Part shown: in pieces, positions 22,282-51,260 of the stretch
How the letters are laid out: each line of letters opens with the position of its first letter
How positions within the stretch are numbered: the first letter of the stretch is position 1
Origin: Myxococcales bacterium
GTDB taxonomy: Bacteria > Myxococcota_A > Polyangia > Polyangiales > SLQV01
Direction: 5' to 3'
Length of the DNA: 64,000 nucleotides
NCBI GenBank assembly: GCA_007131285.1
Contig: SLQV01000005.1
Coordinates: 568-64,567 of the forward strand
Made by a program: the position numbers and the translations under genes
The notes under the pieces: generated by a model
Databases searched by the model: none
Seen by the model: the letters and a program-made list of their open reading frames with translations, nothing else
Told to the model about the DNA's origin: nothing

Positions 22282-25200
22282 GCATCAACGGTACACCAAA
22301 CCCCACAAACTCAACACCGCTTTCTAACGACGGCTTAGCCCGGTCGAGCATCGCTTCGACAAGCCCCTCAGGAATCTCAGCTACCGCGATACCGGTCCCC
22401 GATGGTGCATACCAAACGGCGGTATGAGACCCTGTTGCGAGCTTTACACGCTCCCCGTTTCGCTTAACGCGAAAATAGTCAAACGAGAGAGCGCACGCGG
22501 ACGTGAACAGGGCATCGAGGGTCATCTCCACTTCGATGGTGGAGAATGGCATTGTTTCATTAAGGTGCTTCACCTTGACATCAGTACACAAGAACTCTCC
22601 TAGCGGCCGCACCTCTTCGAGGTATTCCCTTGAAACGCCATGAACGAACCAGTCGCGCGCCGCTTCCTGCCAGAAAATATAGTTAGAGAAATAAACGTTT
22701 CCAACAAGGTTGCTCTGAGCCAACCCCGTCTCGAAGGAATGCGTATGAAGCAGGGGTCCTCTCTTCGGACCCGGTTCCCTTTGAAACAACGCATCTCCTA
22801 GATGGATCTCGGCAGACGTGCGTCGTCGAGCCAGGCTGTCGCTGACCTTCGACTTCGGACCTCTCCCTCGGTTGTAGTCGAGGAAAAAGTCGGGCCACGG
22901 ATCTGGTCGCACTACGCCGTGGCTAATCACCTTAACCGCAGATACATCCATTAGACTCCTACCGAGCACACGGCGACGAGAGTGCCCGTTTCCATCGCGG
23001 GCAAACCAGTGCCAAACAAGCGTGCACTTTTCCGGGCTTACCGCGGTCACAAAAAAGTGTACCTCGATTAGGTCTGACGCCACCGGGTGATCGATGATTT
23101 CTGTCGAGAATTCATTGGTAACGCTCGTTAGCTCATTTGAGCCGAGCATGCTGTAGAGCTTCTCATGATAAGCAGCTGATTCAAGTCCGAATAGCTCCCT
23201 CACCTTGCCCGCCCAAGTCGCGAAAGTGCCAGCACGCACTCTACGAAGCAAACTCTGAATATCCACACAGCTGAGAGGAAAGCGATGAACAAAGATGTCT
23301 TCGCTCTGTGGACCCGCGCTCTCTCGATATTCAAAAGACGCGAGTCGCATCGGCCCGCCATCTATCGAATCCGGCGTGGACTTCGCTTCTAAGCCCACAG
23401 AATCACCTTGGTTTTCATCTGACGCGGACTGTCTCCGGAGAGCGACAGCGCCCGCGCTCATAGCTACGATGTAGTCAACCTGTCCAATCGACACCTGGAA
23501 AACGGCGTGATCAATCGGCTCGCCGGCATTAGTTTTCGCTCTGAACACTGCAGATTGATCGTCTGTCACTTGAAGCAAATGGAGTGGGGCATTACGGTCA
23601 CCTGACTCCTTGAATACACTTTCATGAATGGCCCAAAGCGCCGTACATGCGGCGTCCTTTTTCCACCCTTGTCTGATAAGACCACCGGCGAGGCTTAGCG
23701 TTTCTTCGCCCAAGAGTTGTCGCCACTGGCTCTCAGTCCTCGCGTTCACAGTTGCGAGATCGCAGCCTTGCGAACCTACACCGGCAACAACCAGGCACAA
23801 TAAGTTGTCCTGTGACAGTGACACTCCAAGTTCGGGGCTTGATACTAACGGCTTTCCTGTTTGCGCATCCCAAGATATTTCAGGGACATACTGCTCACCA
23901 TCTGGTGGGAGCGTGGCGCGTAATGACGCTACAGTATCAGCCAGTAGGCCAGCCTCGTGTTGATGACGGTCCTCCCGCGACATCGTCTGCAAACCAGGCA
24001 TAAATCGCAACCGAACGGCCGGCGGCTCTAGGCCGCGCGTGCGAGCAATGAAATCAATCTTAGACCGGAGAGCTCTCTCGTGAACAAGCCAGCCTGAGCG
24101 GATGTCACTGGCGCGGGGCAAACGCTCGTCGGTTGCGACTATTCGGACGGAACACGCCTCCATGGTTTCGGTGACGTCTCCGTTTTCATCACATACGGTA
24201 GCGCGCACGGTCGCGAGCTTGCCATCTATCCGGTCCACCACCTGCGTCCTCACTGCTCGTCGTCCGGAAACCGAAGCCGTGCGGTGCACCCTCAGGGTGT
24301 CTATTGCCATAGGAAGTGCTCTGCCTGGGGAAAGCGAAAGCTGTAAACACTGCAACTGCGCATCCCTCGCGAAAGGGTCCCCCAGTACCCAGCGACCTGA
24401 ACTAGACGCGGGAAACCGAGCGAACTTGTCATCGATCGAAAACAAGCCGCCCGCGTCGGTCAGGTCGTGAACGGCCGACACTCTTCGAAAAGTTGGACCA
24501 TGAAAGAGTAAAGTTCCGTAGACACCCTGTAATTCGAGATCCACCGGCAGCCGACGGGGGAGAACCAGCGGAGGCTGGTTCTCCGCGTACTCACCGGAAA
24601 GGCCAAGGGCAAACTTTGCCTTGAAACACACCGGTGGGTGTATCGTGCCATTGGCAGTGCTCAGGCTTGCGCCGAATCGAGTCACCGATTCAGCGCTAGT
24701 GGCTCTTACCGTAATCAGAATTGCGGTGCTGGCCTCGACTGAGACGTCGACTGGACGAAAGAACTCAGCATTCTCGACCGTAAGTGGTGTGAGCTGGACT
24801 CGGCCAGCCACTAGGGCGACGGCTTGGGCCATGGCTTCGAGGCCGAAGACGGCGGGAAGTAGGTAGCGGCCTTCGAAGCAGTGGTCGCGGATAAAGTCGT
24901 CGTGCTCAACGCTGAGCGTCGTGCGAACGATGGCTTCCACGCCGGGTTCACAGCAGATTACTTCGTCGATGAACCTAAGGTGTTCCTTAGAGCCTGGGCC
25001 GGTCGCGGGCAGCGCAGGTTCCAGTGAGCGCCAGGTGTCAAGGCCGCCGAGACGAGAGGTTACGATAACCTGCTGCGCACTTGGGCGGACATCGACGAGA
25101 GCGAGAAAGCCTTCAACGCCCTGGTCTGGACTTAGCGCCGCGGTGCCTGTTCGCGCCAGCGCTTCGACGCTGCCGAGACGATGGCCCATGCCGACGTCGC

Positions 25201-28200
25201 TCCAGACGCTGTAAGCGAGGGTGCTTACTTCAACCTGCGGATGCCTTGCGGCGAAATGCGCGAGGCTGCGGTCTAGCGAGTCATTGGCGAAAGCGTACCA
25301 GGCATTGCCGGGCATGCCTGTTACGCCGATGACCGACGTCAAACCGATGATGAGGTCCGGGAGCTGCTGGGTTTGCCGGCGTTCCAGCGCTTCGAGCAGC
25401 GCGAGGGCGCCGTGGAGCTTGGGGGCGACTTCAGCGCGGGCGCTCTCGGCGTTGACCAGCTCGGCGCGACGCACCTGATTGAGCCCCGCACCATGCACGA
25501 CGGCACGAATGTGGCCGAGGCGGACGTGCACCTGAGCCACTAGCGCATCGACCGCGGCGGGATCTGCGAGGTCGACACTGAAGTATTCACACCGGATGCC
25601 TTGTGCGCGCAGCGCATCAAGCTCGGCTGCGACGCGCGCGTGAGGACTGCGCCCGACGAGCGCGAGGGTTACGCCATCTCGGGACGCCCAGGCCGCGGCG
25701 CAGGCGCCCGTAATCCCCTTGGCGCCGCCGGTGACCAAAACCACGTCGCCCGAACCCAGCCTAACGCGGCGCGGAGGCGACTGTTCCGGTTGCAGTAGCC
25801 GATGGCCGGTGATCCAGCGCTCGCCGCTGGTATCGTAGCGGACGTGGTCGAAGGCGATGGGCGTCCCGAATTCAGCGCCGAGAAAGCCGGCACACTCGCC
25901 GGACGGACACGCCGCGGGCAGCTCGAGGACACGAACGCGCAGGCTTGGGCGTTCGTGATGCAAGCTGGCTGCGAAGGCCGCGAGACCGCAGACGAAACCG
26001 TCGTGGGCGGTCGCCTCGCCGACCTCTATGAATGCGAGTGCAAGATCCGGTCGCGCGGCGGGCAGCGCTTGCGCAAGCGCTGCGAGTTGAGCCACGCTCT
26101 CCTCGAACGAAAGCGCTCCGGCGGTAGGCGTGTAAAAGACACAGAGTGCGGCAACGCTCGCGTCTAGCGCGCTGCGCAGCGAAGCATCAAGGCGGAGCAC
26201 CTCGCTCTGACCACCGAGCCTGCCGAGCACGCCGCTAAATCGCTCGGCGTCCGGGCCGGATGCCGAGCCCAGGGCCGCGACACGCACGCGCTGACCCGCC
26301 GGCCAATCCGTGCGGGCGGGCTTCCCGAGGGCATCGACGCGCCACTCTTGCGCGAAGTGCCGAACCCATGGCGCGCCGGCGGCCTCCTGCGTCTGGCGCG
26401 CTGGGAGCGCGCCTATTCTCGCCTTCGCGGGCACCGCGGCGCGCACCTCACTTGCGCGTTCGCTGGAGAAACGCGGTGCGTCGGCGGACGACGTCACAGG
26501 CGCCACCCGGCTAATGAGGCGCTCCCTAGGGGAGGCTGCAGGCGCAGGAAGCGCGTCAGCCGCAGGTCGTGCTTCTGAACCAGCGGGCGTGCGCTGCGCA
26601 GAAGTAGCCTCCACTCGCGCCGGCGCACGCGGTGCGTCGCTGGCGCGAGTACCGGTCTGCGCGTTCAGTGCTTCTGCTAACTCGCCGAGGCTCGCATTTG
26701 CAAAGCGGGTCGCGTCCAGCGCCGCTACATCAAGCGCGCACGCCTGAGCAAGCTCACCGACAAGCTCCGCGACCTTGATGGAATCGAGGTTGAGGTCGTC
26801 GAGTAGGCGCAAACCTGGGTCTAGGGATTCCTTCGGGTAGCCGGTGCGCTGCGCAACGCGCTCGCACACCTCCGTCAATACGTCGGGTCCTGAGATCGGC
26901 GACGCAAGTGTCTCGATCATTTCCGGCCCTTCCGAGAGCGCGATACGCGCACCGCTGGAGTCGGTCGCTCGCACGTCGGGGGCCGGCATCGCTAACGTAT
27001 TCGCTGGCTGCGGCGCACCCACGGTAGCCACCCCAAACGCATCAGCCCGCACACCGGGGTAGCGCTCGGCTGAAGTCGATGCGCCCTCGGGGCTAACGAC
27101 AGGCACGGCGCGGCTCACCACCGCCTCCGGACCGCGCGGCGGCGCAGCGGGGAGTTCCGCAGAGAGCAGCACGGCTAGTTCCTCCAGAGAAGCGTTAGCA
27201 ACACGCATGGCATCCGGCGCCGGCTCGATTTGAAAATGCGCGGCGGCCTCCGCGGACAGCTCGGCCGTCTTGATAGAATCAAGATTGAGATCGTCCAGGA
27301 GGCGCAGATCCGGCGTCAGTGAATCCGGCGGGAACCCGGTGCGCTGCGAGACTCGGTCTTGAATGTAGGCAAAGACCTCTGCTTGGCGCCCGGGCGCCAG
27401 CGAAGACGACGCAGCGAGCGACTCGCCTGCGTCTGGAACCAACTGTAAGCCCGTTGTCGCGACTGACTGAAGCGCGTCGGAGGACTCCGGCGCTGCGGCG
27501 GGCGCGCTAACTTGACTGCGCGAGATTTCCACCTCTGCCTCGGGCGTTGACTCGAAGATGCTTGCAGGCTGCGGCAGGGCCCCCGCAACTTCGGGCGCTG
27601 ACTCGACGCGAAGCTGGGCCGCAGTCGATTGGTCGGCCGACCATTCCGCACCAAGCTCCTGCCTGCTGGCTCGATTAAGGACCGGCGCGACCGCTCCTCT
27701 TGTAATTGTTGCTGGCGCGGCCGGGCCGAAGCCCCGCGAACGCGCGTCGACGGCCACAACCTGCGTGACACTCTCCAAGAACTCCGCGCGCTCACTGGCG
27801 TAAGCGGCAAACTGCTCTGGCGTTAGACCAGAAGGCCGGCGAATCGGGAGCCACGCGTCGTGTTGAGCAGCGGCACTGAGCTGCGCCGGCCGAGCGACAC
27901 GCGGCTCAGGAGAGGCGGGCAAACCCTCGCAGTAGTTTGCGATGAACGCGCGCGCCTGCGCGGGGACGAACGCACGCACGGCGCGGCCCGCGAAAAGGTT
28001 TTGCAACCGCAGCGGCGCTCCGGTTGCAAAAAGAACCGCCACCAACTGGTGGAACTCGAGACGACGCTCAGCCCGCGCTTCAACCGGGAATACGAACGGG
28101 CGCGCGTTTGCCGAACGCGCAGCAAACTGGTCGCCAAGAAGCCCAGAGAGCGTCCGCCCAGGGCCCAGCTCGATCACCAAGTCACAGCCCTCCGCCAGCG

Positions 28201-30919
28201 AACGACCCACCCGCATAAAGTCCACCGGACGAAAAATCTGAGTGCCCACGTGCTCGCGCAGTGCGATCCTACCTTGTTTGACCGCTTCTTCGGGAGATGA
28301 GGCATCGGCCATGCTTGTTACCCAAGGAATCGCCAGCGAGGCACTCTCTCGAATTCGCGGGTCCCGCGCGACAGCGCGGCCGGCGGGCTCGACGAACTTG
28401 GAATGGAAGGCTCCCGAAACCCCTAGCCGACGACCAGCGACTTTCTTCTGGCGAGCCACGCTTTCAAGCTGCTTAATCGCGGTCTCATCTCCAGAAACGA
28501 TGGTTTGGCGGGGGCTATTGATGTTCGCGATGACGAGATAGCCTCTGACCTGCTCGATGAGGAGCTGAGCGGTGGCGGCATCGCAACCAAGTCCCAACAT
28601 TGCACCCGTCTGACACTCCGCCATGGCCTGACCGCGAATGGCAGCGAGTTGGATGACTTCTTTATCGTCGAGGGCGCCGGCCACGTAGAGGGCGGCGAGC
28701 TCGCCGAGGGAATGACCCGCCACGATGCAAGGCTCAAGGCCAAGCTCATCGCGCAGGTATTTGCACCACAGCACCGTGCTGAAGATGACGACTGGCTCAG
28801 TGTGGGCGGGCTTGGCAAGCCGCGTCGCCCAGGCTTTCTCAGCAGCTTCTGTGCGCACGTATTCGGCAGCTGGATAGAGCAATGCGGATACGGGCGCGCT
28901 CCCGACTTCGGCTAGCCAGGCGTCGGCCTGCGCCAGGAAAGCCTGTGCCCAAGGTAGGCGCGCCAACAGGTGCGCGGCGCAGCCGATGAACTGCGCCCCC
29001 TGTCCGGGAAAGACCCAGCCCACCCGGGGGGCTTGCGGTGCCGTATTGTTCGCGGCCGCCAGGCTTAGCCAGATGCGGCGGTCGCTGGAATGCCACAGCG
29101 GGAACGAACCTGATGACGCCTCCCCCGGTTGCGCGGCATCCGGCTCTTCAAGCTTGGCAAGCAAGCGCTCGAGGGCATCCGCCAAACCCAGCGGGTCTTC
29201 CGCGACGACCGCGGCCCGGTGCGGCGCGGCGTGCCCAAGGGCTTCCGCGCGCTGGCAGCTTTGGGCACTCAGGTCAGGCATTTCACCGACGGCCATGCCG
29301 CGACAGTGCAGCAGCAATTCGGCGGCAGCTTGGACGAGTTCCGCGCGCGTGGCAGCTGCCAAAGGAAACACTTCACTGTCTTGATAGGAAGCCAGCAAGG
29401 CGTTTTCGCTCAGCGTTGGCGTGAGTCGGTTGTCGGGCTTGGGGCCGGATTCAAGTGTAATATGGCTATTGATGCCGCCGAAACCCATCGCCGAAACGCC
29501 AGCGCGCACATTCGCTTCTGGACTACGCGCCTCGCCGCGCAGCAGCGGGTAGAGAACGCGGGCGTCTTGTTCAAAGACGGGACTTGGCTGCGCACAGCCA
29601 ACCGTCGGCGGCACGATGCGCCGATTGACCGCCATCACAGCCTTAATCAGGCCACCGATGCCGGCGGCCGCTTTGGTATGGCCCACCAAGGACTTAAAGG
29701 AGGTGATACCTATCGCCGGGGCGGCGGTGGCGGGTGCCGGCTCGGCTTCCGCCGCGAACCAGTCGTGGGCTAGCTGTATGCCCTTAAGCTCGATGGCGTC
29801 GCCAACGGGGGTTCCGGTTCCGTGTCCCTCAATGAAGTCCAGTGCCTGGGGTGGGTATCCGGCGCGGCGGTACGCACGTTCGAGCGCCAGTGCCTGGCCA
29901 CGGACTGTCGGGGCAGTGATGCCGCCCTTGCCGTCCGATGAGATACCCCAGCCGCATAGCGTGGCGTAGATGGCGTCACCGTCGCGCAGGGCGTCGGCGT
30001 AGCGCTTTAGGATAACGATGCCACAGCCCTCGCCAGGGATGAAACCCGATGCACGTTTATCGTAAACGCGCATTTCCGTGGGCGTGAGCGCCCCAACCTT
30101 CGAAAAGCCGATAAGCTCAAAGGTATCGATGCTGATGTCGACGCCGCCCGCTAGGGCGACATCAATATCGCCGCGAACCAAGGCATCGGCCGCCGAAATC
30201 GTCGCTAAGAGCGACGACGAACACGCACCATCCACAACGTAGCCGCCGCCGTGGAGGTCGAGGTAGTTACAGACGCGGCCCGGGATGGTGTTTGACAGGT
30301 TGCCCGCGAGGGTATCTTCGTCAAAGGCCGGGAACACCGATTTGTACTGCGCTTCCGTCTCTTCCAGCAAGCCGGCGAGCGTGCCAGCGTCGAGGCCCTG
30401 GGCGACTGCGGCAGCTGTGATCGCCCGCGCGACAAAGGGCCAGCGCAGGCGCATCGACAATGCGCGGCACTGTTCACCGGTCAGCGTGTTGCCCAGGACG
30501 GCTGCGGTGCGATCTTTTGGCAGCTCGCGGCCCCCCGGACCGTAGCCCGCATCTGCCACGGCCTGCAGCGCCACCTCCAGCGCCAGCCAGTGGGCGATGT
30601 CGGTGACCTCCACTGTACTTTTAGGTATGCGGCGCTTAGCCCAATCGAAAACGAAACCGTCGATGAGCCCCGCGCGGGTGCTGTAGGTTTTGTCGGGCGT
30701 TTTTCGGTCTGGATCGTGGTAGTCAGTGAGGCGCAGGCGACAGTCCGGCATACGGCGGAAACCCTGGCGTCGTGACAGGATATTCTCCCAAAGCGCGACA
30801 GGGTTATCCGCACCAGGGTAGCGGCAACCGATGCCGATAACCGCGATGCGTGCGTCCGCAGCCACAGCACGGATCGACGCGCCAGGCGTGGGCGACTGAG
30901 GGGGATGGTGGATGGTCAT
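22262..30919 (-). CDS. iterative type I polyketide synthase, enediyne-PksE-like: KS-AT-ACP-ACP-KR-DH-PPTase plus C-terminal double hotdog (4HBT-like) thioesterase region
   Basis: Approximate domain positions: KS at about 29450-30850 (DGACSSS, EGHGTGT, GHTKAAAG). AT at about 28130-29026 (GQGAQ, GHSLGE). ACP1 at about 27155-27382 (LDDLNLDSIKTAEL). ACP2 at about 26660-26887 (LDDLNLDSIKVAEL). KR at about 25040-26392 (VLVTGGAKGITG). DH at about 24110-24997 (HCFEGRYLLP = HxxxGxxxxP). PPTase-like at about 23435-24052 (GCDLATV, WAIHESVFKESG). Hotdog-like halves at about 22370-23347 (SNLVGNVYFSNYIFWQEAARDWF). Confidence 0.9.
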   Translation of the reverse strand: MTIHHPPQSPTPGASIRAVAADARIAVIGIGCRYPGADNPVALWENILSRRQGFRRMPDCRLRLTDYHDPDRKTPDKTYSTRAGLIDGFVFDWAKRRIPKSTVEVTDIAHWLALEVALQAVADAGYGPGGRELPKDRTAAVLGNTLTGEQCRALSMRLRWPFVARAITAAAVAQGLDAGTLAGLLEETEAQYKSVFPAFDEDTLAGNLSNTIPGRVCNYLDLHGGGYVVDGACSSSLLATISAADALVRGDIDVALAGGVDISIDTFELIGFSKVGALTPTEMRVYDKRASGFIPGEGCGIVILKRYADALRDGDAIYATLCGWGISSDGKGGITAPTVRGQALALERAYRRAGYPPQALDFIEGHGTGTPVGDAIELKGIQLAHDWFAAEAEPAPATAAPAIGITSFKSLVGHTKAAAGIGGLIKAVMAVNRRIVPPTVGCAQPSPVFEQDARVLYPLLRGEARSPEANVRAGVSAMGFGGINSHITLESGPKPDNRLTPTLSENALLASYQDSEVFPLAAATRAELVQAAAELLLHCRGMAVGEMPDLSAQSCQRAEALGHAAPHRAAVVAEDPLGLADALERLLAKLEEPDAAQPGEASSGSFPLWHSSDRRIWLSLAAANNTAPQAPRVGWVFPGQGAQFIGCAAHLLARLPWAQAFLAQADAWLAEVGSAPVSALLYPAAEYVRTEAAEKAWATRLAKPAHTEPVVIFSTVLWCKYLRDELGLEPCIVAGHSLGELAALYVAGALDDKEVIQLAAIRGQAMAECQTGAMLGLGCDAATAQLLIEQVRGYLVIANINSPRQTIVSGDETAIKQLESVARQKKVAGRRLGVSGAFHSKFVEPAGRAVARDPRIRESASLAIPWVTSMADASSPEEAVKQGRIALREHVGTQIFRPVDFMRVGRSLAEGCDLVIELGPGRTLSGLLGDQFAARSANARPFVFPVEARAERRLEFHQLVAVLFATGAPLRLQNLFAGRAVRAFVPAQARAFIANYCEGLPASPEPRVARPAQLSAAAQHDAWLPIRRPSGLTPEQFAAYASERAEFLESVTQVVAVDARSRGFGPAAPATITRGAVAPVLNRASRQELGAEWSADQSTAAQLRVESAPEVAGALPQPASIFESTPEAEVEISRSQVSAPAAAPESSDALQSVATTGLQLVPDAGESLAASSSLAPGRQAEVFAYIQDRVSQRTGFPPDSLTPDLRLLDDLNLDSIKTAELSAEAAAHFQIEPAPDAMRVANASLEELAVLLSAELPAAPPRGPEAVVSRAVPVVSPEGASTSAERYPGVRADAFGVATVGAPQPANTLAMPAPDVRATDSSGARIALSEGPEMIETLASPISGPDVLTEVCERVAQRTGYPKESLDPGLRLLDDLNLDSIKVAELVGELAQACALDVAALDATRFANASLGELAEALNAQTGTRASDAPRAPARVEATSAQRTPAGSEARPAADALPAPAASPRERLISRVAPVTSSADAPRFSSERASEVRAAVPAKARIGALPARQTQEAAGAPWVRHFAQEWRVDALGKPARTDWPAGQRVRVAALGSASGPDAERFSGVLGRLGGQSEVLRLDASLRSALDASVAALCVFYTPTAGALSFEESVAQLAALAQALPAARPDLALAFIEVGEATAHDGFVCGLAAFAASLHHERPSLRVRVLELPAACPSGECAGFLGAEFGTPIAFDHVRYDTSGERWITGHRLLQPEQSPPRRVRLGSGDVVLVTGGAKGITGACAAAWASRDGVTLALVGRSPHARVAAELDALRAQGIRCEYFSVDLADPAAVDALVAQVHVRLGHIRAVVHGAGLNQVRRAELVNAESARAEVAPKLHGALALLEALERRQTQQLPDLIIGLTSVIGVTGMPGNAWYAFANDSLDRSLAHFAARHPQVEVSTLAYSVWSDVGMGHRLGSVEALARTGTAALSPDQGVEGFLALVDVRPSAQQVIVTSRLGGLDTWRSLEPALPATGPGSKEHLRFIDEVICCEPGVEAIVRTTLSVEHDDFIRDHCFEGRYLLPAVFGLEAMAQAVALVAGRVQLTPLTVENAEFFRPVDVSVEASTAILITVRATSAESVTRFGASLSTANGTIHPPVCFKAKFALGLSGEYAENQPPLVLPRRLPVDLELQGVYGTLLFHGPTFRRVSAVHDLTDAGGLFSIDDKFARFPASSSGRWVLGDPFARDAQLQCLQLSLSPGRALPMAIDTLRVHRTASVSGRRAVRTQVVDRIDGKLATVRATVCDENGDVTETMEACSVRIVATDERLPRASDIRSGWLVHERALRSKIDFIARTRGLEPPAVRLRFMPGLQTMSREDRHQHEAGLLADTVASLRATLPPDGEQYVPEISWDAQTGKPLVSSPELGVSLSQDNLLCLVVAGVGSQGCDLATVNARTESQWRQLLGEETLSLAGGLIRQGWKKDAACTALWAIHESVFKESGDRNAPLHLLQVTDDQSAVFRAKTNAGEPIDHAVFQVSIGQVDYIVAMSAGAVALRRQSASDENQGDSVGLEAKSTPDSIDGGPMRLASFEYRESAGPQSEDIFVHRFPLSCVDIQSLLRRVRAGTFATWAGKVRELFGLESAAYHEKLYSMLGSNELTSVTNEFSTEIIDHPVASDLIEVHFFVTAVSPEKCTLVWHWFARDGNGHSRRRVLGRSLMDVSAVKVISHGVVRPDPWPDFFLDYNRGRGPKSKVSDSLARRRTSAEIHLGDALFQREPGPKRGPLLHTHSFETGLAQSNLVGNVYFSNYIFWQEAARDWFVHGVSREYLEEVRPLGEFLCTDVKVKHLNETMPFSTIEVEMTLDALFTSACALSFDYFRVKRNGERVKLATGSHTAVWYAPSGTGIAVAEIPEGLVEAMLDRAKPSLESGVEFVGFGVPLMRGGARA

Positions 30920-33621: not shown

Positions 33622-33713
33622 ATCAGACGCAGCTTACGGGAGGCGCCGGCCCCGCGCGAGCGATTCGTCCTCACTACGCCTTAGGTTAACGCTGCACTCG
33701 TGAACTCGCCACC

Positions 33714-33793
33714 CAGTCATCCAGCCACTCAGTCATCCAGCCACTCAGTCATCCAGCCACTAAGTCACCCTGGCTCGAAGTCACCCTGGCTCG
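33714..33793. repeat. 16-bp minisatellite: 3 x cagtcatccagccact followed by 2 x aagtcaccctggctcg
   Basis: Five head-to-tail 16-bp units read directly (33714-33761 and 33762-33793). The two unit types share about 10 of 16 positions. Confidence 0.9.
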
Positions 33794-33947
33794 AACGGCA
33801 TGGGTTCCCGCCAGCACACCAAAGGTGCCACGCGTACCACTTACAGCTTACCCACCGATATGTTCCGACTTTCGTCGACCCGAACACAGCCCGCCTGAAA
33901 CTCAGCTACCTGAAGTCTCACCGCGAACGGTGACCGGGTCGACGCAG

Positions 33948-45816: not shown

Positions 45817-46560
45817 ATGCTCTCCATCGCGTCCGCTTCACATCACATGTATTTGCCTCTCTCTGGGGCATCCAACGTCCTTATTACCGTCGAACATGGT
45901 GGAATATCGACGCCCTTTCCATGGACGCATACCCCGGATATCTCTCCCCTTACCGGCACCCACTGGGCATCCGATTTATACATTGCTCCACTAGCTCTCT
46001 CGCTTGCGGAGCACCTCAACGCTCCGTGCGTCATCGCGCACTTCTCGCGTCTACTTGTTGATCCCAACCGCGCCCCTTCAGCGCCACACTTTATCCCTAA
46101 TCAAGTAGTTGATTCTAAGCATAACATTCGATTTGACCGACCTACACGCGGAGAACGACGAGAGCGTATTCGACGGCTTTATCTACCCTACCACCTCGCC
46201 GTGGATCGCGTCGCACGTCACTATAATTCTGTTACTATTCTATCACTACATTCCTTTACCGATAACTATGGTGGCGTATCACGCATTCACGAAGCCGGTG
46301 TTCTCTTCAACGAGGATGCTGCCGGCGCCGATACATTCCTAGACTCCCTCAGAGACCAGGGCGTTGATGCTCGGCCTAACTGGCCGTACTCAGGCCACGA
46401 TGGCTTCATTTTTAGTGCTGAAACCCACGCTCGAAGACATAACATACGGCACACGGTAGAGATCGAACTTCGGCAAGACCGCCTGCTCGATCCCGACTTT
46501 TCCTCAAGATCACTGAGCGCTCTTTCTAACGCACTCACAGCACTGAGCTGTCGCCTTTAG
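45817..46560 (+). CDS. N-formylglutamate amidohydrolase (FGase) family protein
   Basis: VLITVEHGG...(S)RLLVDPNR...YLPYH...ILSLHSFT blocks typical of the FGase family. The start could be the Met at 45847. The gene is visibly more A/T-rich than its surroundings. Confidence 0.6.
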   Translation: MLSIASASHHMYLPLSGASNVLITVEHGGISTPFPWTHTPDISPLTGTHWASDLYIAPLALSLAEHLNAPCVIAHFSRLLVDPNRAPSAPHFIPNQVVDSKHNIRFDRPTRGERRERIRRLYLPYHLAVDRVARHYNSVTILSLHSFTDNYGGVSRIHEAGVLFNEDAAGADTFLDSLRDQGVDARPNWPYSGHDGFIFSAETHARRHNIRHTVEIELRQDRLLDPDFSSRSLSALSNALTALSCRL

Positions 46561-47131
46561 GAGCACGTTACCTTCCTGAACCGATTGCATCATACGCGTT
46601 GGAAAAAGACGGGATGGGCTCAGTGACCGCCAAACATCCTTATGAAACTGACTTTCGCTCATTTTTTTGACTGCGAACACTCGCGCGCCGTCCGTCAATC
46701 CAACACGTTGCTCGCTTGGCCGCACACCCATGACCCGCTCAATCCCCCTTCAAGCTCAGGATCACTCCCGCCCTGAGTCCCACTGAGATGCTCCGGAGGC
46801 TTCACCAAGCGCCGCGGTGAAACGCCGAAGCCATCATTGCATCCGCGGGCGAGGCGTTCGGAGCGCCCGGCTGTTGGGTCTCTCCCGCTGCCGGCCGAAG
46901 GGCGCTGACCGAAATGACGCTGGCGTTCATCGACGCACCTCGCGCAGCGTATCGCCCCTGGGCCTCGAGCGCGCTTGTAGCCGTTAAGGGGGCCTTTTCG
47001 AGATGCCCCCGGGTTTACGGGAGTGAATCCCGCTAACCCTCCCCCAAAAACCTAAAGCCGGCAAGCGGGGCCCCAACGCCCACTTGCTTCTTTCCGCAGC
47101 GTTTTTGCTTTCTGGACCCCCTGAACGGTTA

Positions 47132-47156
47132 CCCTAACTCACCTGGAGCACCTCGG
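47132..47156. repeat. left copy of a perfect 25-bp inverted repeat (ccctaactcacctggagcacctcgg)
   Basis: Exact reverse complement of 49513..49537, verified base by base. Confidence 0.95.
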
Positions 47157-47307
47157 AGCGTAGAGCTTTCCAAACAGATGTTATCTTCTTGGAGACCATA
47201 CCAAGCTCCTCTCGCGAATCACCGCCATCATCTATTTGACGTGCTTTGATATAGTGTGTCTTTTGTCCGACTTTTTCCTTTACTTCGTGATATTGAATGC
47301 GCAACAC
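47134..47307 (-). CDS. small hypothetical ORF (57 aa from GTG; or 21 aa from the SD-preceded ATG at 47199)
   Basis: Manual translation: VLRIQYHEVKEKVGQKTHYIKARQIDDGGDSREELGMVSKKITSVWKALRSEVLQVS*. The internal ATG is preceded by GAGGAG with a 6-nt spacer. The ORF is below the track's length cut-off. Its last 7 codons lie inside the inverted repeat. Confidence 0.25.
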   Translation of the reverse strand: MLRIQYHEVKEKVGQKTHYIKARQIDDGGDSREELGMVSKKITSVWKALRSEVLQVS

Positions 47308-47339
47308 ACTTGTTTAAATAAGGAAAGGCCACTTGTCCG

Positions 47340-47876
47340 TTAACGGATTCTATTGATGTCGCGATGAATCGTTGAGTATCCAATATAACGCGCGGCAATA
47401 TCGCTTATCGCCTCGCGTTCCGCAGCCGTCAATGCGCGCTTTACTTTTCCCGGATTTCCTGCCACCAAAACGCCTTCAGGTACCACCGTACGTGGCCGAA
47501 TCACTGTGCCAGCCGCAACCAATGATCCGCGACCAATACGCGCTTCATCTAAGACCACCGCGCCAATACCTATGAGCGCATCATCCTCAATGATGCAGCT
47601 GTGCAGCGTAGCCTGATGCCCCACCGACACCCCGCGACCCACCTGCACCGGCGCGCTCCGGAACGTTGTGTGGATAACAACATTGTCCTGGATTGAGCTT
47701 TCTGCGCCTACCTCTATCGCTTCCAGGTCTCCGCGAAGCACGGCGCCGTACCAAACCGAGGCACGTGCCCCCAGCGCAACGCGTCCAATAAGCACGGCGG
47801 TCTCGGCCACGAATGCCTCTGGATGAACGTCCGGCGCGATGCCCTCCAGGGCATAGAGGCGGCCACCGTCGCTCAC
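47340..47876 (-). CDS. gamma-class carbonic anhydrase-like / left-handed beta-helix (hexapeptide repeat) protein
   Basis: FVAETAVLIGRVALGARASVWYGAVLRGDLEAIEVGAESSIQDNVVIHT...VGHQATLHSCIIEDDALIGIGAVVLD. YrdA/PaaY/CaiE-type. Confidence 0.8.
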   Translation of the reverse strand: MSDGGRLYALEGIAPDVHPEAFVAETAVLIGRVALGARASVWYGAVLRGDLEAIEVGAESSIQDNVVIHTTFRSAPVQVGRGVSVGHQATLHSCIIEDDALIGIGAVVLDEARIGRGSLVAAGTVIRPRTVVPEGVLVAGNPGKVKRALTAAEREAISDIAARYIGYSTIHRDINRIR

Positions 47877-49474
47877 GGCAGCCCTCCCGCGATCGCGGTC
47901 GTCAGCGGAAGCCGTCGCTTGCCCTCAGGCGCGTTTGCATGTGCGGCAGCGGGCTGCGTAGCCGCCTGGCCCTCCCCAGCTTCGCTTAAGCGAACGGGAG
48001 CTGGAGGTGACGCGAGCAGAACCAGCGGCTTGGCCTTCACACTCCGCGCACCCGCGGACTCAACACGGGCGCGGACAAGCGCGCCCTCGGCCAGCACCGC
48101 GGCGTTGAGTGCTGAAGCAGATGGCTCGCTCGATGAGGGCGCACTCAAGTGAACAATTTCATTCCGCTGCGAGCGCCCCTGCCAGAGTCCTTCATTGCTT
48201 TTTCCACGGCTCTCAATCAGCACATCTACTTCGGATCCAACAAGACCTGCGAGGTGACGTGCCTGCACTCTATCCGCAACTTCAAATAGTTTCGCTAAAC
48301 GCGCTTCCTTGACATCTTCCGCAACAGCTAGATCCTCGAAATTAAGGGCAGGCGTGTGCGGCCTCGGCGAGTATTTAAACGCATATACGCTCGTGAATTC
48401 CACCTCTTCAACAAGTGATAACGTCTCCGCAAAGTCCGCATCTGTTTCACCTGGAAAACCGACGATTAGGTCCGTCGAGAATGTCATATTGGGACGCGCA
48501 AGTCTCAGTGAAGCGATGCTTTCCAGATATTGGGCGCGTGTATACCGCCGCAGCATGCGCCGCAACATGCGATTTGAACCCGACTGAACTGGGAGATGCA
48601 CATGGTCAGGAAGAAGATCCAAGTCGTGGTAGGCATCTAGCAACGCTTCAGTGATATGCCTCGGGTGCGGCGATGTGTAGCGAAGACGTAGCAAATCGGG
48701 CACCTCTTCTGCGATAAGTCGCAGCAACTGTGCAAAGTGAGATGGCGCTTTGCTTGAGCCTTGCATTCGAGGAACAGAACGCATCTGCGAGGCTATATCA
48801 AGGGAAGTACAATCGTTATCCTGTGACGTTAGGGTGACCGGTTCGTGCCAGGAGTTGACGGTTTGTCCGAGCAGCGTGATTTCGCGAGCGCCCCGGCGAA
48901 CCCAGTGCTTGCACTCCGACACGATGTCCGCCGCAGGACGGTAGCGTTCGCTGCCTCGGGTGTAGGGTACGATGCAGAAGGTGCACCGCTCGTCGCAACC
49001 CTTCATCACCGTCACAAAGGCGGTGGGGCCGCTTGCCTTTGTCGGTGCTGCGTCCACCACCGGCGACAGGAACGTGGGCGCGTCGTAGTCGAACGCCACG
49101 GCAATGCGGGGTGGCGCGCCTTGTTCGATCTCGGCGAGGAGCACGGGAAGCTCGTGAATACGGTCCGGACCAAAGACGACATCGACCCAAGGCGCACGGC
49201 GAATAATGGCGCTGCCTTGATGCGAGGCGACACAGCCCGCGACGGCGATTTGGCGCCCGGGCCGCGCCTCTTTCCAGTCTCGCAGCCGACCCAGCATCGA
49301 GAAAAGCTTGTGCTCGGCCTTCTCGCGCACGCTGCAGGTGTTGACCACCATAACATCCGCAAGCGCGGCTTCAGGCTCAGCCCCGTAGCCATGCGGCTCT
49401 AGCACATCGAAGATGCGCTCAGAATCATGGGTATTCATTTGGCAGCCGAAGGTTTGAACGTGCAGCCGAGGCAT
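47873..49474 (-). CDS. miaB: tRNA-2-methylthio-N6-dimethylallyladenosine synthase (radical SAM methylthiotransferase) with about 80-aa C-terminal extension
   Basis: LHVQTFGCQMNTHDSERI, radical-SAM CDERCTFCIVPYTRGSERY, TRAM-like region, then an Ala/Pro-rich tail. Confidence 0.88.
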   Translation of the reverse strand: MPRLHVQTFGCQMNTHDSERIFDVLEPHGYGAEPEAALADVMVVNTCSVREKAEHKLFSMLGRLRDWKEARPGRQIAVAGCVASHQGSAIIRRAPWVDVVFGPDRIHELPVLLAEIEQGAPPRIAVAFDYDAPTFLSPVVDAAPTKASGPTAFVTVMKGCDERCTFCIVPYTRGSERYRPAADIVSECKHWVRRGAREITLLGQTVNSWHEPVTLTSQDNDCTSLDIASQMRSVPRMQGSSKAPSHFAQLLRLIAEEVPDLLRLRYTSPHPRHITEALLDAYHDLDLLPDHVHLPVQSGSNRMLRRMLRRYTRAQYLESIASLRLARPNMTFSTDLIVGFPGETDADFAETLSLVEEVEFTSVYAFKYSPRPHTPALNFEDLAVAEDVKEARLAKLFEVADRVQARHLAGLVGSEVDVLIESRGKSNEGLWQGRSQRNEIVHLSAPSSSEPSASALNAAVLAEGALVRARVESAGARSVKAKPLVLLASPPAPVRLSEAGEGQAATQPAAAHANAPEGKRRLPLTTAIAGGLP

Positions 49475-49512
49475 GGGTGCACGTTAGCACGACCGACGGC
49501 CTGTGAATCTCC

Positions 49513-49537
49513 CCGAGGTGCTCCAGGTGAGTTAGGG
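49513..49537. repeat. right copy of the perfect 25-bp inverted repeat (ccgaggtgctccaggtgagttaggg)
   Basis: Exact reverse complement of 47132..47156. Lies 39 nt upstream of the miaB start codon. Confidence 0.95.
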
Positions 49538-49868
49538 CCGGAAGTCTATGCCGCTAGTTGTTGGGTTTCGCGTAAGCGCGCGTAAGCGTTTAGGGGTCTT
49601 ATCTAGCTAACATGCGTCGGGAAAGAGCAAGTAGCTGCTTGGGCCCCACGCGCAGCTCTAACGCGGTGAAGGAAGAGATTGAGCACGGCGGCGGCCGGGA
49701 GAGGGCGGCCGCGTTCCATCGCGTTGGGTCGCGGCGAGTGCATGGGATTGCCTCTTGCGGCACCTCACTTTACCCTCGAGCATCAGTGCGGGCAGCTCAA
49801 GAAACCGCCTGCGCAGGCTGAGGACGAAACCGGACGGATGGGCTAGGAACGAAAAGGTGGAGGTAGTA

Positions 49869-51260
49869 ATGGGCGTGCGGCAGGAAAGCGATTCGATGGG
49901 AACCCTCGAGGTGCCGGCGGAGGCATACTACGGCGCGCAAACCGCGCGCAGCATGATCAACTTCGACATCGGTGAGGAGCGCATGCCGCTGCCGCTCGTC
50001 CGTGCCTTCGCTCACCTCAAGCGCGCGGCGGCGCAAGCAAACCTCGAGCTTGGCAAGCTGCAACCGGCGGTTGCCACGGCCATCTGTAGGGCGGCAGACG
50101 AGGTGATTTCCGGCAAGCTCGACGGCCACTTTCCGCTGCGCGTTTGGCAGACAGGGTCGGGAACACAGAGCAACATGAACGTCAACGAGGTCATCGCTAA
50201 TCGCGCCATCGAACTCGAAGGCGGTGTTCTCGGCTCGAAGCAGCCAGTCCATCCCAACGATCACGTCAATGCTTCCCAGTCCTCGAACGACACCTTTCCA
50301 ACGGCGATGCACATCGCCGCACTTGTCGAGGTGGAGCGCACGCTCGTGCCCGCGCTGGACCCACTCATCGCCACGCTTGATGCGAAGGCAAAAGCCTTCG
50401 CAAGCATCGTCAAGATTGGGCGCACGCATTTGCAAGACGCGACGCCCATCACCCTTGGCCAAGAAATCTCCGGGTGGGTTGCTCAGCTCAGACACGCGCG
50501 CCACGCCATCCTCAGCACCCTCGAGCCGCTGCGTGACCTGGCCATCGGCGGAACCGCCGTAGGCACCGGTCTCAATGCGCACCCCGACTTCGGTACGAGG
50601 GTCGCAAATCACCTCACCACAGCCGTAGGCACTCGCTTCCACAGTGCGGAGAACAAGTTCGCGCTGCTCGCCGCGCATGATGCCTTCGTGCTGGCAAGCG
50701 GGGCCCTCAAGCAGCTTGCAGCGGCGCTGATGAAGCTTGCCAACGACGTGCGCTGGCTGGCGTCCGGGCCGCGCTGCGGCATCGGCGAGATTCGCATTCC
50801 CGAAAACGAGCCCGGCTCGTCGATCATGCCCGGCAAGGTAAACCCGACGCAGTGCGAAGCCATCACGATGGTCGCCTGCCAGGTGATGGGCAACGACGCG
50901 ACCATCGGCTTTGCAGCCAGCCAGGGCAACTTCGAGCTGAACGTCTTCAAGCCGGTTATCGCCAATGCCTACTTGCAGTCCGTGCGCCTGCTTGCGGACA
51001 GCATGCGCTCCTTCAACGCGCACTGCGCCGTGGGCATTGAGGCGGTGCCGGATACCATCAAGCGCAACCTCGACGGCTCGCTGATGCTCGTCACCGCGCT
51101 CAATCCACACATCGGTTATGACAATGCCGCCAAGATAGCGAAGCACGCCTTCGCCCATGGCCAGACGCTGAAGGCCGCTGCCGTCGAGCTTGGACTTGTG
51201 AGCGCCGAAGACTTCGACCGCTGGGTCAAGCCGGAAAACATGACCTCGCCCAGCGCGTAG
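49869..51260 (+). CDS. fumC: class II fumarate hydratase
   Basis: [39 protein letters not shown], signature [18 protein letters not shown] 49869 is preceded by GGTGGAGG; the ORF opens at 49755. Confidence 0.93.

Follow-up and report, generated by a model that had tools for sequence, protein, structure and literature searches.

Short inverted repeats bracket the segment in Hin/hix, the fim switch, and the invertible promoters of Bacteroides, and the segment of such an inverton is a promoter or a variable part of a gene. Invertons are described as segments flanked by inverted repeats of 10 to 40 nt (PMC11892184). Two identical inverted ends also face each other in MITEs and IS elements, with their terminal inverted repeats, and in the geometry of composite transposons. 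In the RNase III stems that flank rRNAs and in icaR, complementary sequences lie on either side of the coding region and have the potential to form a very stable helix. The rRNA stems are conserved and co-varying, while icaR is a precedent for pairing between the 5′ UTR and the 3′ UTR in bacteria (PMC3868564). Finally, homogenised inverted-repeat arms, quasipalindrome correction, and the remnants of tandem inversion duplications consist of an inverted copy near its source, with a perfect core in a diverged repeat; such features are lineage-specific and occur without dedicated genes. That template switching or recombination makes repeat arms evolve in concert is well established (PMC5941160; PMC8604942). 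The documented cases of template-switch homogenisation have arms that are tens of bases apart, with spacers of up to 70 bp (PMC5941160).

As listed in Table 1, a perfect 25-bp inverted repeat was found around the miaB operon of a Polyangia lineage, in the 64-kb stretch of DNA that was analysed as a whole (the window). The left arm is CCCTAACTCACCTGGAGCACCTCGG, and it was verified to be the exact reverse complement of the right arm. A distance of 2,356 bp separates the two arms. Between the right arm and the miaB ATG (whose A is at 49474) there are 38 nt, and the left arm begins 183 nt past the stop codon of the gamma-carbonic-anhydrase-like (gamma-CA-like) gene (47340–47342). The left arm also overlaps the end of a 57-aa ORF on the minus strand (47134–47307). 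Since neither a Pfam family nor a homologue was found for this ORF, nothing suggests that it is a gene. No internal dyad symmetry can be read from the arm sequence. Only two matches to the arm exist in the window even when up to three mismatches are allowed, no match was found in any of 100 shuffled sequences, and the composition-aware expectation for perfect 25-nt inverted pairs is 6.6e-6 in 64 kb. An inverted-repeat scan gave no second perfect long inverted repeat in the window. Thus, the sequence-only reading was right that the repeat is exact, that chance is negligible, and that the arms lie where it had placed them relative to the miaB start, the stop of the second gene, and the small ORF.

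Table 1. Features in and around the repeat-bounded miaB operon (window coordinates)
Feature	Position	Strand	Remarks
Conserved intergenic block, 155 nt	46977..47131	.	81% identical to relative L004
Central GC-rich hairpin of the block	47067..47093	.	A-tract and T-tract on its sides
Left arm, perfect 25-bp inverted repeat	47132..47156	.	Predicted 3′ UTR of the miaB/gamma-CA-like operon; adjoins the conserved block; GC 64%
Orphan segment, 180 nt	47157..47336	.	Low GC (42%)
Hexapeptide-repeat (gamma-carbonic-anhydrase-like) gene, 178 aa	47340..47876	-	
miaB, 533 aa	47873..49474	-	UPF0004, radical SAM, and TRAM domains
TGCTAACGT, predicted extended −10 element of the miaB promoter	49481..49489	-	Ends 6 nt before the ATG
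Right arm, perfect 25-bp inverted repeat	49513..49537	.	−63 to −39 relative to the miaB ATG (the predicted transcription start)
Spacer between right arm and partial copy, 42 nt	49538..49579	.	
Decayed inverted partial copy of the block	49580..49660	-	Block profile positions 85–166; nhmmer E=3.5e-7

Are there more copies of the arm elsewhere? None was found in about 74 kb of the same genome (the window and 9.8 kb beyond it). The central 20-mer of the arm does not occur in exact form in any of 185,579 GTDB species-representative genomes, and a single match was obtained from the JGI metagenomes (L009); the source genome is not among either of these collections. The L009 match is due to chance, as it falls within the gene for a cobalamin adenosyltransferase in an AT-rich organism and its flanks are dissimilar. 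An adapter or assembly artefact was ruled out as the source of the arms because at least three independent assemblies show each arm.

I compared the locus with those of related bacteria. The closest relative, whose MiaB is 79% identical and whose gene order is the same, has no arms. Its intergenic region upstream of the operon is 112 nt in length versus 394 nt here, and the downstream region is 360 nt versus 780 nt. Both arms lie in intergenic DNA that is expanded in this species. In relatives lacking the arms, the enclosed miaB and gamma-CA-like genes have the same order and the same orientation, and thus the repeat-bounded segment itself is not an insertion. RNAduplex, when applied to whole intergenic regions, returned global pairings and was uninformative; the length of the longest complementary run was used instead. 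In the related loci, the longest complementary runs between the operon flanks are 6 to 9 nt, which is the chance level, and no equivalent complementary pair was found.

The orphan segment and the left arm together make up a lineage-specific insertion of about 205 nt, which lies between the gamma-CA-like stop codon and the start of the conserved block when the junction of the relative L004 is taken for comparison. The window junction corresponds to that of the relative, where CGTTAACGG is joined to TAACCGTTCAGGGGGTCCAGA, plus the inserted nucleotides ending in the arm; the insertion junction is uncertain by 2 nt (GG). The low-GC segment has no match among plasmids and phages. Rfam searches at gathering and at permissive thresholds gave two tRNAs elsewhere in the window and otherwise sub-threshold noise. 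The start of the block is an insertion hot spot in both species. A permissive alignment hinted that the 42-nt spacer or the 25-mer might be homologous to a 165-nt element of the relative, and this was not significant with stricter scoring. A patchwork of templated fragments was also considered and rejected; the sole other fragment is a 22/24 match to a uvrD-like gene, which is too little.

The left arm directly adjoins the conserved block. The block has its own terminal inverted repeat (AGCCGTTAAGGGGG and CCCCCTGAACGGTT) and a compact fold, and the convergent FGase and miaB operons probably share it as a bidirectional terminator region. Judging from its sequence, the central hairpin is a candidate bidirectional intrinsic terminator, although it was not flagged by a simple terminator scan. 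It was revealed that a decayed inverted partial copy of this block starts after 42 nt outside the right arm, in the intergenic region between fumC and miaB. The relative orientation is the same on both sides: the block is followed by the 25-mer on the left, and the partial copy is followed by the spacer and the 25-mer on the right. In the partial copy, the two sides of the hairpin can no longer pair and the T-tract has disappeared, whereas the left copy and the relative retain both the hairpin and the T-tract. A 10-nt tandem duplication (CGCGTAAGCG twice at 49569–49588) straddles the boundary between the spacer and the copy. It had been stated that the similarity stops abruptly at both ends of the arms. 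This is true of ungapped similarity and of the inner sides, but a degenerate similarity goes on at the outer sides. Thus, the repeat is a larger inverted duplication of about 70% identity with a perfect 25-bp core.

I therefore give about an even chance to the explanation that intergenic DNA underwent a larger inverted duplication in this species only and that the 25-bp repeat is its core, still perfectly intact; the repeat is probably no dedicated device. A piece of the 3′ flank, reaching from the terminator hairpin to the end of the block and including the adjoining sequence, may have been placed, as an inverted copy, on the opposite side of the operon via a template switch during replication or repair. 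Neutral decay would then have brought the block part of the copy down to about 70% identity, with loss of the hairpin. The 25-bp core may have been homogenised later, when short-patch conversion or template switching took place between the two inverted copies, or it may be the most recently copied patch. Today, the left arm would lie within a 3′ UTR of about 300 nt of the miaB operon and the right arm a short distance before the −35 region of a miaB promoter that yields leaderless mRNA. The most that the arm pair would do is to permit rare inversions of the entire transcription unit by RecA-type recombination.

This local duplication is supported by the degenerate homology beside both arms in a consistent orientation, with the nhmmer E-value given in Table 1. 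In the window and the 9.8 kb beyond, the arms and the blocks number two each and all four are located at the miaB operon. Furthermore, the arms are absent from the orthologous site of the nearest relative, and no mobile-element genes were found nearby. The known cases of homogenised arms, quasipalindrome correction, and tandem-inversion remnants share with this locus an inverted copy near its source, a perfect core in a diverged repeat, and a lineage-specific distribution without dedicated genes. On the other hand, an identity of 25/25 beside one of about 70% is unexpected from a single old duplication (0.7^25 is about 1e-4), so that a second event or selection on the 25-mer must be assumed. 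The 42-nt difference in spacing means that an extra indel is needed. The distance of 2.4 kb between the arms contrasts with the spacers of tens of bases in the documented template switches, and the junctions show microhomology of no more than 2 nt (GG, where the left insertion begins or ends). Pairwise alignment gives the block copy modest direct support; its score was reached by 4 of the 1000 dinucleotide shuffles, and the significance comes from the profile.

The arms, possibly together with the block, might instead belong to a multi-copy intergenic family of the MITE or REP type, two members of which happen to flank the operon. This is unlikely in my view, although it comes closest among the three readings proposed from the sequence alone, since the arms are indeed parts of a longer sequence that is repeated. 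The terminal inverted repeats and the compact fold of the block as well as the insertion hot spot at its start would suit such an element, and a cluster of four strain SNPs, which spans 33 nt of the block, might be a tract converted from another copy. However, the only two copies seen are both at the operon: no further copy of arm or block was found in about 74 kb of the same genome or in about 0.6 Mb of related Polyangia loci, and the searches with the central 20-mer gave nothing apart from the chance metagenome match. Target-site duplications are absent, since the outer flanks (...AACGGTTA and CCGGAAGT...) are not direct repeats, and no arm-like sequence was found at the far ends of the lineage-specific segments, where a MITE with arm-like terminal repeats would carry it. 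Unlike in MITEs, IS elements, and composite transposons, no transposase accompanies the two facing ends, and the enclosed genes are syntenic with those of relatives lacking the repeats. Local duplication thus fits better than a dispersed mobile family. Could the arms be crossover sites at which the 2.36-kb transcription unit flips, by programmed or recombination-driven inversion? The geometry and the arm length fit the definition of an inverton, and repeated recombination would maintain the perfect identity of the arms. A length of 25 bp is roughly the minimum for RecA-dependent exchange. Still, such inversion was found to be unsupported and is very unlikely. No recombinase, integrase, or transposase was found in the window or the 9.8 kb beyond it (Pfam scans of the window ORFs; annotation of L002 and L099). 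A single orientation was observed in all assemblies crossing an arm (three across the left arm and at least four across the right arm, from four samples), a count in which minor isoforms would not appear because they would not assemble. Contig ends near the arms might have pointed to structural variants, but strain SNPs (47002, 47013, 47022, 47034, and 47250) account for them and they do not coincide with the arms; nor do the break points of one sample (49408 and 49707). Unlike the sites of known invertons, the arm lacks a dyad-symmetric core. What the arms enclose is a complete transcription unit of housekeeping genes with its own predicted promoter, and flipping would leave promoter and genes linked and expression unswitched.

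The position of this promoter also bears on the idea that a single minus-strand transcript carries one arm at its 5′ end and the other at its 3′ end, so that a 25-bp helix would close the mRNA for RNase III processing or stability control. The arm–arm duplex has a free energy of −54.3 kcal/mol, and 25 of the 25 pairs are formed in the minimum-free-energy fold of a 2.5-kb model transcript. The left arm is probably transcribed because it lies upstream of the putative terminator, and icaR shows that pairing between the two UTRs has a bacterial precedent. However, an extended −10-like motif (TGCTA) was found upstream of miaB in 26 of the 37 related loci versus 0.02 expected, and both the predicted −35 and the extended −10 lie between the right arm and the miaB ATG. 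The miaB mRNA is thus predicted to be leaderless and to start at the ATG, which would place the upstream arm outside the transcript, unlike in the rRNA stems and icaR. No sigma-70-like promoter was found further upstream of miaB. Conservation, covariation, and analogous pairing are absent in all relatives, in contrast to the rRNA stems. Furthermore, the partner copy stands beside the relic of a decayed terminator, which points to duplication rather than design as its origin. The mRNA-closing duplex is accordingly disfavoured, and I consider it highly improbable. An equally slender chance is given to paired binding sites, one at −63 to −39 and the other behind the operon, for the same regulator or nucleoid protein acting, for example, in looping or insulation. 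The right arm is at a position typical of activator or UP elements, and selection would explain a perfect identity beside decayed flanks. Against this, the arm lacks dyad symmetry, related 13-mers are not enriched elsewhere in the window (three versus zero to four in shuffles), and the 25-mer is missing from the orthologous miaB promoter in the closest relative as well as in every other relative.

Most likely, the inverted repeat is a real but ordinary structural relic. There is a slim prospect that the arms are functional, either as an operon-scale invertible element with a recombinase encoded elsewhere or as a 25-bp helix in a minority transcript starting upstream of the main promoter. If so, they would be a switch on MiaB, and thus on ms2i6A tRNA modification and translation fidelity, in this myxobacterium, and it would be unusual for a tRNA-modification operon to be regulated by inversion or by RNA closure. 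As a relic, the repeat matters little in itself and exemplifies how the intergenic DNA of an uncultured Polyangia lineage grows when a terminator region is copied locally in inverted orientation. The picture changed here once the promoter was placed by comparison and the flanks were searched with gapped alignments or profiles. Scans in which inverted repeats alone are taken to indicate invertons or RNA stems call for care: even a perfect repeat whose arms are far apart may be a by-product instead of a device.

The two halves of the inverted repeat, 47132-47156 (CCCTAACTCACCTGGAGCACCTCGG; the left arm) and 49513-49537 (the right arm), are exact reverse complements, and they are the only matches to the 25-mer in the 64-kb window when up to three mismatches are allowed. 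They form its only perfect long inverted repeat, the remaining listed pairs being 71-94% complementary, which is at chance level. Allowing for base composition, 6.6e-6 perfect inverted pairs of 25 nt would be expected in the window, and 100 dinucleotide-preserving shuffles yielded no match to the 25-mer. The inverted repeat is real and statistically secure, and the sequence-only reading rightly treated a chance match as negligible. Its placing of the arms was also borne out: 38 nt separate the right arm from the miaB ATG, while the left arm, which starts 183 nt past the stop codon of the hexapeptide/gamma-CA-like gene, reaches into the end of a 57-aa ORF, for which neither a Pfam family nor a homologue was found. 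Read from the sequence, the arm has no internal dyad symmetry, and 13-mers taken from it show no enrichment in other parts of the window.

The same species (at least 99.9% identity) was assembled separately in ERZ27301261, ERZ27301262, ERZ27301263, Logan SRR7083929/31/34, and NCBI GCA_007127515.1. The left arm is crossed by contigs L002/L090/L096 and L091/L097 and by the window, and the right arm by L001, L003, L002, and the window, with one arrangement throughout at each arm. Since independent assemblies agree, the repeat is not an assembly artefact. Several short contigs break off close to the arms (47001, 47032, 47249-47251, and 47282), at points that coincide with strain SNPs at 47002, 47013, 47022, 47034, and 47250. 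Two break points in one sample, 49408 and 49707, lie off the arm boundaries expected from arm-mediated inversion. The first four of these SNPs, all between the window and L002, cluster in a 33-nt stretch of the conserved block adjoining the left arm, as against about one difference per 1.4 kb over the aligned region (16 in 21.6 kb); such a cluster suggests that a short tract was imported or converted.

The window covers core chromosomal DNA from an uncultured, Polyangia-like member of the Myxococcota, and the best named MiaB relatives come from Myxococcota, Myxococcales, or Polyangiales MAGs at no more than 57% identity. No recombinase, integrase, or transposase was found in the window or in the 9.8 kb past its right end, and an Rfam search returned two tRNAs elsewhere in the window and nothing credible near the arms. 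At 22262-30919 (minus), a 2885-aa multidomain KS-AT-ACP-KR-DH protein is encoded, followed by a hybrid histidine kinase/SpoIIE phosphatase gene. Two adjoining 16-nt tandem-repeat arrays, GCCACTCAGTCATCCA (about 3.8 copies) and AAGTCACCCTGGCTCG (about 2.1 copies), lie at 33708-33795 between surE and tRNA-Pro(GGG).

Features around the inverted repeat and genes of the wider neighbourhood (window positions)
Feature	Position	Strand	Remark
FGase (N-formylglutamate amidohydrolase-family gene)	45817-46560	plus	convergent with the operon
Conserved block	46977-47131 (155 nt)		directly outside the left arm; counterpart in L004, the closest relative locus, at 2547-2711
GC-rich hairpin, block centre	47067-47093		A-tract on one side, T-tract on the other (GCAAAAAC ... 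GGTTTTTGG)
Hexapeptide/gamma-CA-like gene	47340-47876	minus	
miaB	47873-49474	minus	
fumC	49869-51260	plus	divergent from miaB
Other neighbours			lepA, MauE-like gene, SSF transporter, thiolase, CoA-transferases
More distant genes			pheST, rplT/rpmI, proS, purB/purC, UvrD-like helicase, 2885-aa PKS/PUFA-synthase-like gene

The similarity between the two sides had been thought to stop abruptly at both ends of the arms. This holds for the inner sides, where no similarity was found, but not for the outer sides. The block outside the left arm is 81% identical between the window's species and the closest relative, while the surrounding spacer is unalignable. It bears terminal inverted repeats (AGCCGTTAAGGGGG ... 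CCCCCTGAACGGTT) and a compact consensus fold, and judging from its sequence it is probably a bidirectional intrinsic terminator common to the convergent FGase and miaB units; a simple terminator scan did not flag its hairpin, and no Rfam family matched the block. A profile built from three block sequences was searched against about 0.6 Mb, comprising the window and the loci, and gave one further match at 49580-49660 on the minus strand (profile positions 85-166, E=3.5e-7). The direct pairwise score of this partial copy, 26, was equalled by 4 of 1000 dinucleotide shuffles. Since this partial copy runs opposite to the left block, 42 nt beyond the right arm, the structure reads as block, 25-mer, operon, inverted 25-mer, 42 nt, and inverted partial block. 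A perfect 10-nt tandem duplication (CGCGTAAGCG twice, 49569-49588) at the end of the partial copy explains part of the extra spacing. The hairpin arms of the right-hand copy are no longer complementary and its T-tract is missing; thus, it is a decayed relic. In the FGase-block spacer, 46813-46836 has a 24-nt inverted match (22/24) to 3598-3621 in the coding region of the UvrD-like helicase, which is borderline (E=0.005 within the window).

A co-occurring species (L004-L007, GCA_007120075.1), whose MiaB is 79% identical, has the same gene order and orientation as the window, fumC(-), miaB(+), gamma-CA-like(+), and FGase(-), but the 25-mer is absent. Both of its spacers are shorter than the window's: about 112 against 394 nt between fumC and miaB, and 360 against 780 nt downstream. 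Upstream of miaB, homology between the two starts again only about 27 nt before the ATG. Straight after the gamma-CA-like stop, the relative reads '...CGTTAACGG|TAACCGTTCAGGGGGTCCAGA...', whereas in the window the two halves are about 205 nt apart (47132-47336, with a junction uncertain by 2 nt). The insert is made up of 180 nt at 42% GC and then the arm at 64% GC. Thus, both arms sit in lineage-specific intergenic DNA. At their far ends, the lineage-specific segments carry nothing resembling the arm and hence are not MITEs with arm-like terminal repeats. The 180-nt segment (47157-47336) meets the arm at a sharp compositional boundary in a genome of 62% GC; it gave no homologue by protein search and no plasmid or phage match, and a putative ORF of 21 codons within it is preceded by a good Shine-Dalgarno sequence (GAGGAG-N6-ATG). 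In L004 (2361-2548), right after the gamma-CA-like stop, there is an exact 23-nt copy of the start of the window's block, followed by a 165-nt GC-rich element with a hairpin of about 23 bp and then by L004's own block. The copy and the element indicate that in both species the block start is prone to insertion or duplication. Within miaB, codons 1-200 (48875-49474) have a synonymous-codon identity to L004 of about 0.7 and a nucleotide identity of 87-91%, compared with 0.4-0.5 and 54-80% further along the gene; recombination between the two co-occurring species could account for this tract, as could a stronger codon bias.

Among 37 related Polyangia loci, 26 have the pentamer TGCTA no more than 80 nt upstream of miaB (expected 0.02), and 13 loci have the full TGnTAnnnT typical of extended -10 elements. 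The motif stops 6-7 nt short of the ATG in the window (TGCTAACGT; 49481-49489, minus), in the 79% relative (TGCTAAAGT), and in L008, the next relative (TGCTAGGCT), and none of the three has a Shine-Dalgarno sequence before miaB. This arrangement predicts a leaderless miaB mRNA. The right arm, at -63 to -39, would then lie upstream of the start and outside the mRNA, while the left arm, which precedes the putative terminator, would be inside a 3' UTR of about 300 nt.

What, then, are the arms? I rank a dispersed repeat above inversion, and inversion above an RNA clamp and paired protein-binding sites, which stand level. The suggestion that the arms are ends of a dispersed mobile repeat was right in that they are part of a longer repeat. 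However, the arms lack a target-site duplication and relatives show no empty site, both unlike MITE or IS ends, and no extra copy is visible: a third copy with up to six differences was absent from every fetched locus of other species, as was any further copy from the additional 9.8 kb of this genome. Membership of a dispersed family is therefore unlikely. The central 20-mer of the arm has no exact match in 185,579 species (one genome each, the source genome not among them), and the JGI metagenomes, which also do not include the source genome, gave a single match where about one is expected by chance. At this match (L009 2855-2874), an AT-rich organism encodes the RGAPGEL motif of its cob(I)alamin adenosyltransferase; because the flanking sequence is unrelated, the match was put down to chance.

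Inversion of the operon between the arms, as a substrate or switch, is more doubtful still. Invertons are defined by flanking inverted repeats (PMC11892184), and the arms share with them a suitable length and nothing more: no invertase lies nearby, no contig crossing either arm has the inverted isoform, and no regulatory consequence is apparent. An RNA clamp closing the mRNA has in its favour that the arms would pair (-54.3 kcal/mol) if on one transcript; in a 2.5-kb model RNA, all 25 of 25 pairs form in the minimum-free-energy fold. This fold demonstrates sufficient complementarity only, not the existence of an RNA with both arms. Complementarity is likewise all that the arms have in common with the icaR-type 5'/3' UTR interaction (PMC3868564) and rRNA processing stems. 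The pairing is not conserved, the longest complementary runs between the operon flanks being 6-9 nt, as by chance, in the 79% relative and L008 (61%), and the arms are probably not on the same transcript. I consider the clamp quite improbable, and equally so the idea that the arms are paired protein-binding sites.

Two highly identical paralogous copies in one species, no cross-species conservation, diverged copies of one block beside both of them in the same relative orientation, and expanded intergenic DNA point to a local duplication history rather than an ancient constrained element. In the explanation that I favor, at about an even chance, an inverted copy of a piece of the 3' flank of the miaB operon was placed in the fumC-miaB spacer and later decayed. 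The 25-bp core would have been homogenised afterwards, in a short patch, by template switching or conversion between the inverted copies; alternatively, it may be the patch copied most recently. Both template switching and recombination are documented for the concerted evolution of repeat arms (PMC5941160, PMC8604942), although in the well-studied cases the spacers are tens of bases long, unlike the one between the arms flanking miaB. The weak point of the duplication model is that 25/25 identity beside identity of about 70% needs a second event or selection, so that a functional role of the arms keeps some probability. In the properties tested, the repeat agrees with lineage-specific local inverted duplications. 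A device acting on a tRNA-modification operon by inversion or RNA pairing would, if true, be considerably more interesting, but there is little likelihood that the arms form one. Most likely, intergenic duplication around a housekeeping operon left the feature behind as an ordinary structural relic.
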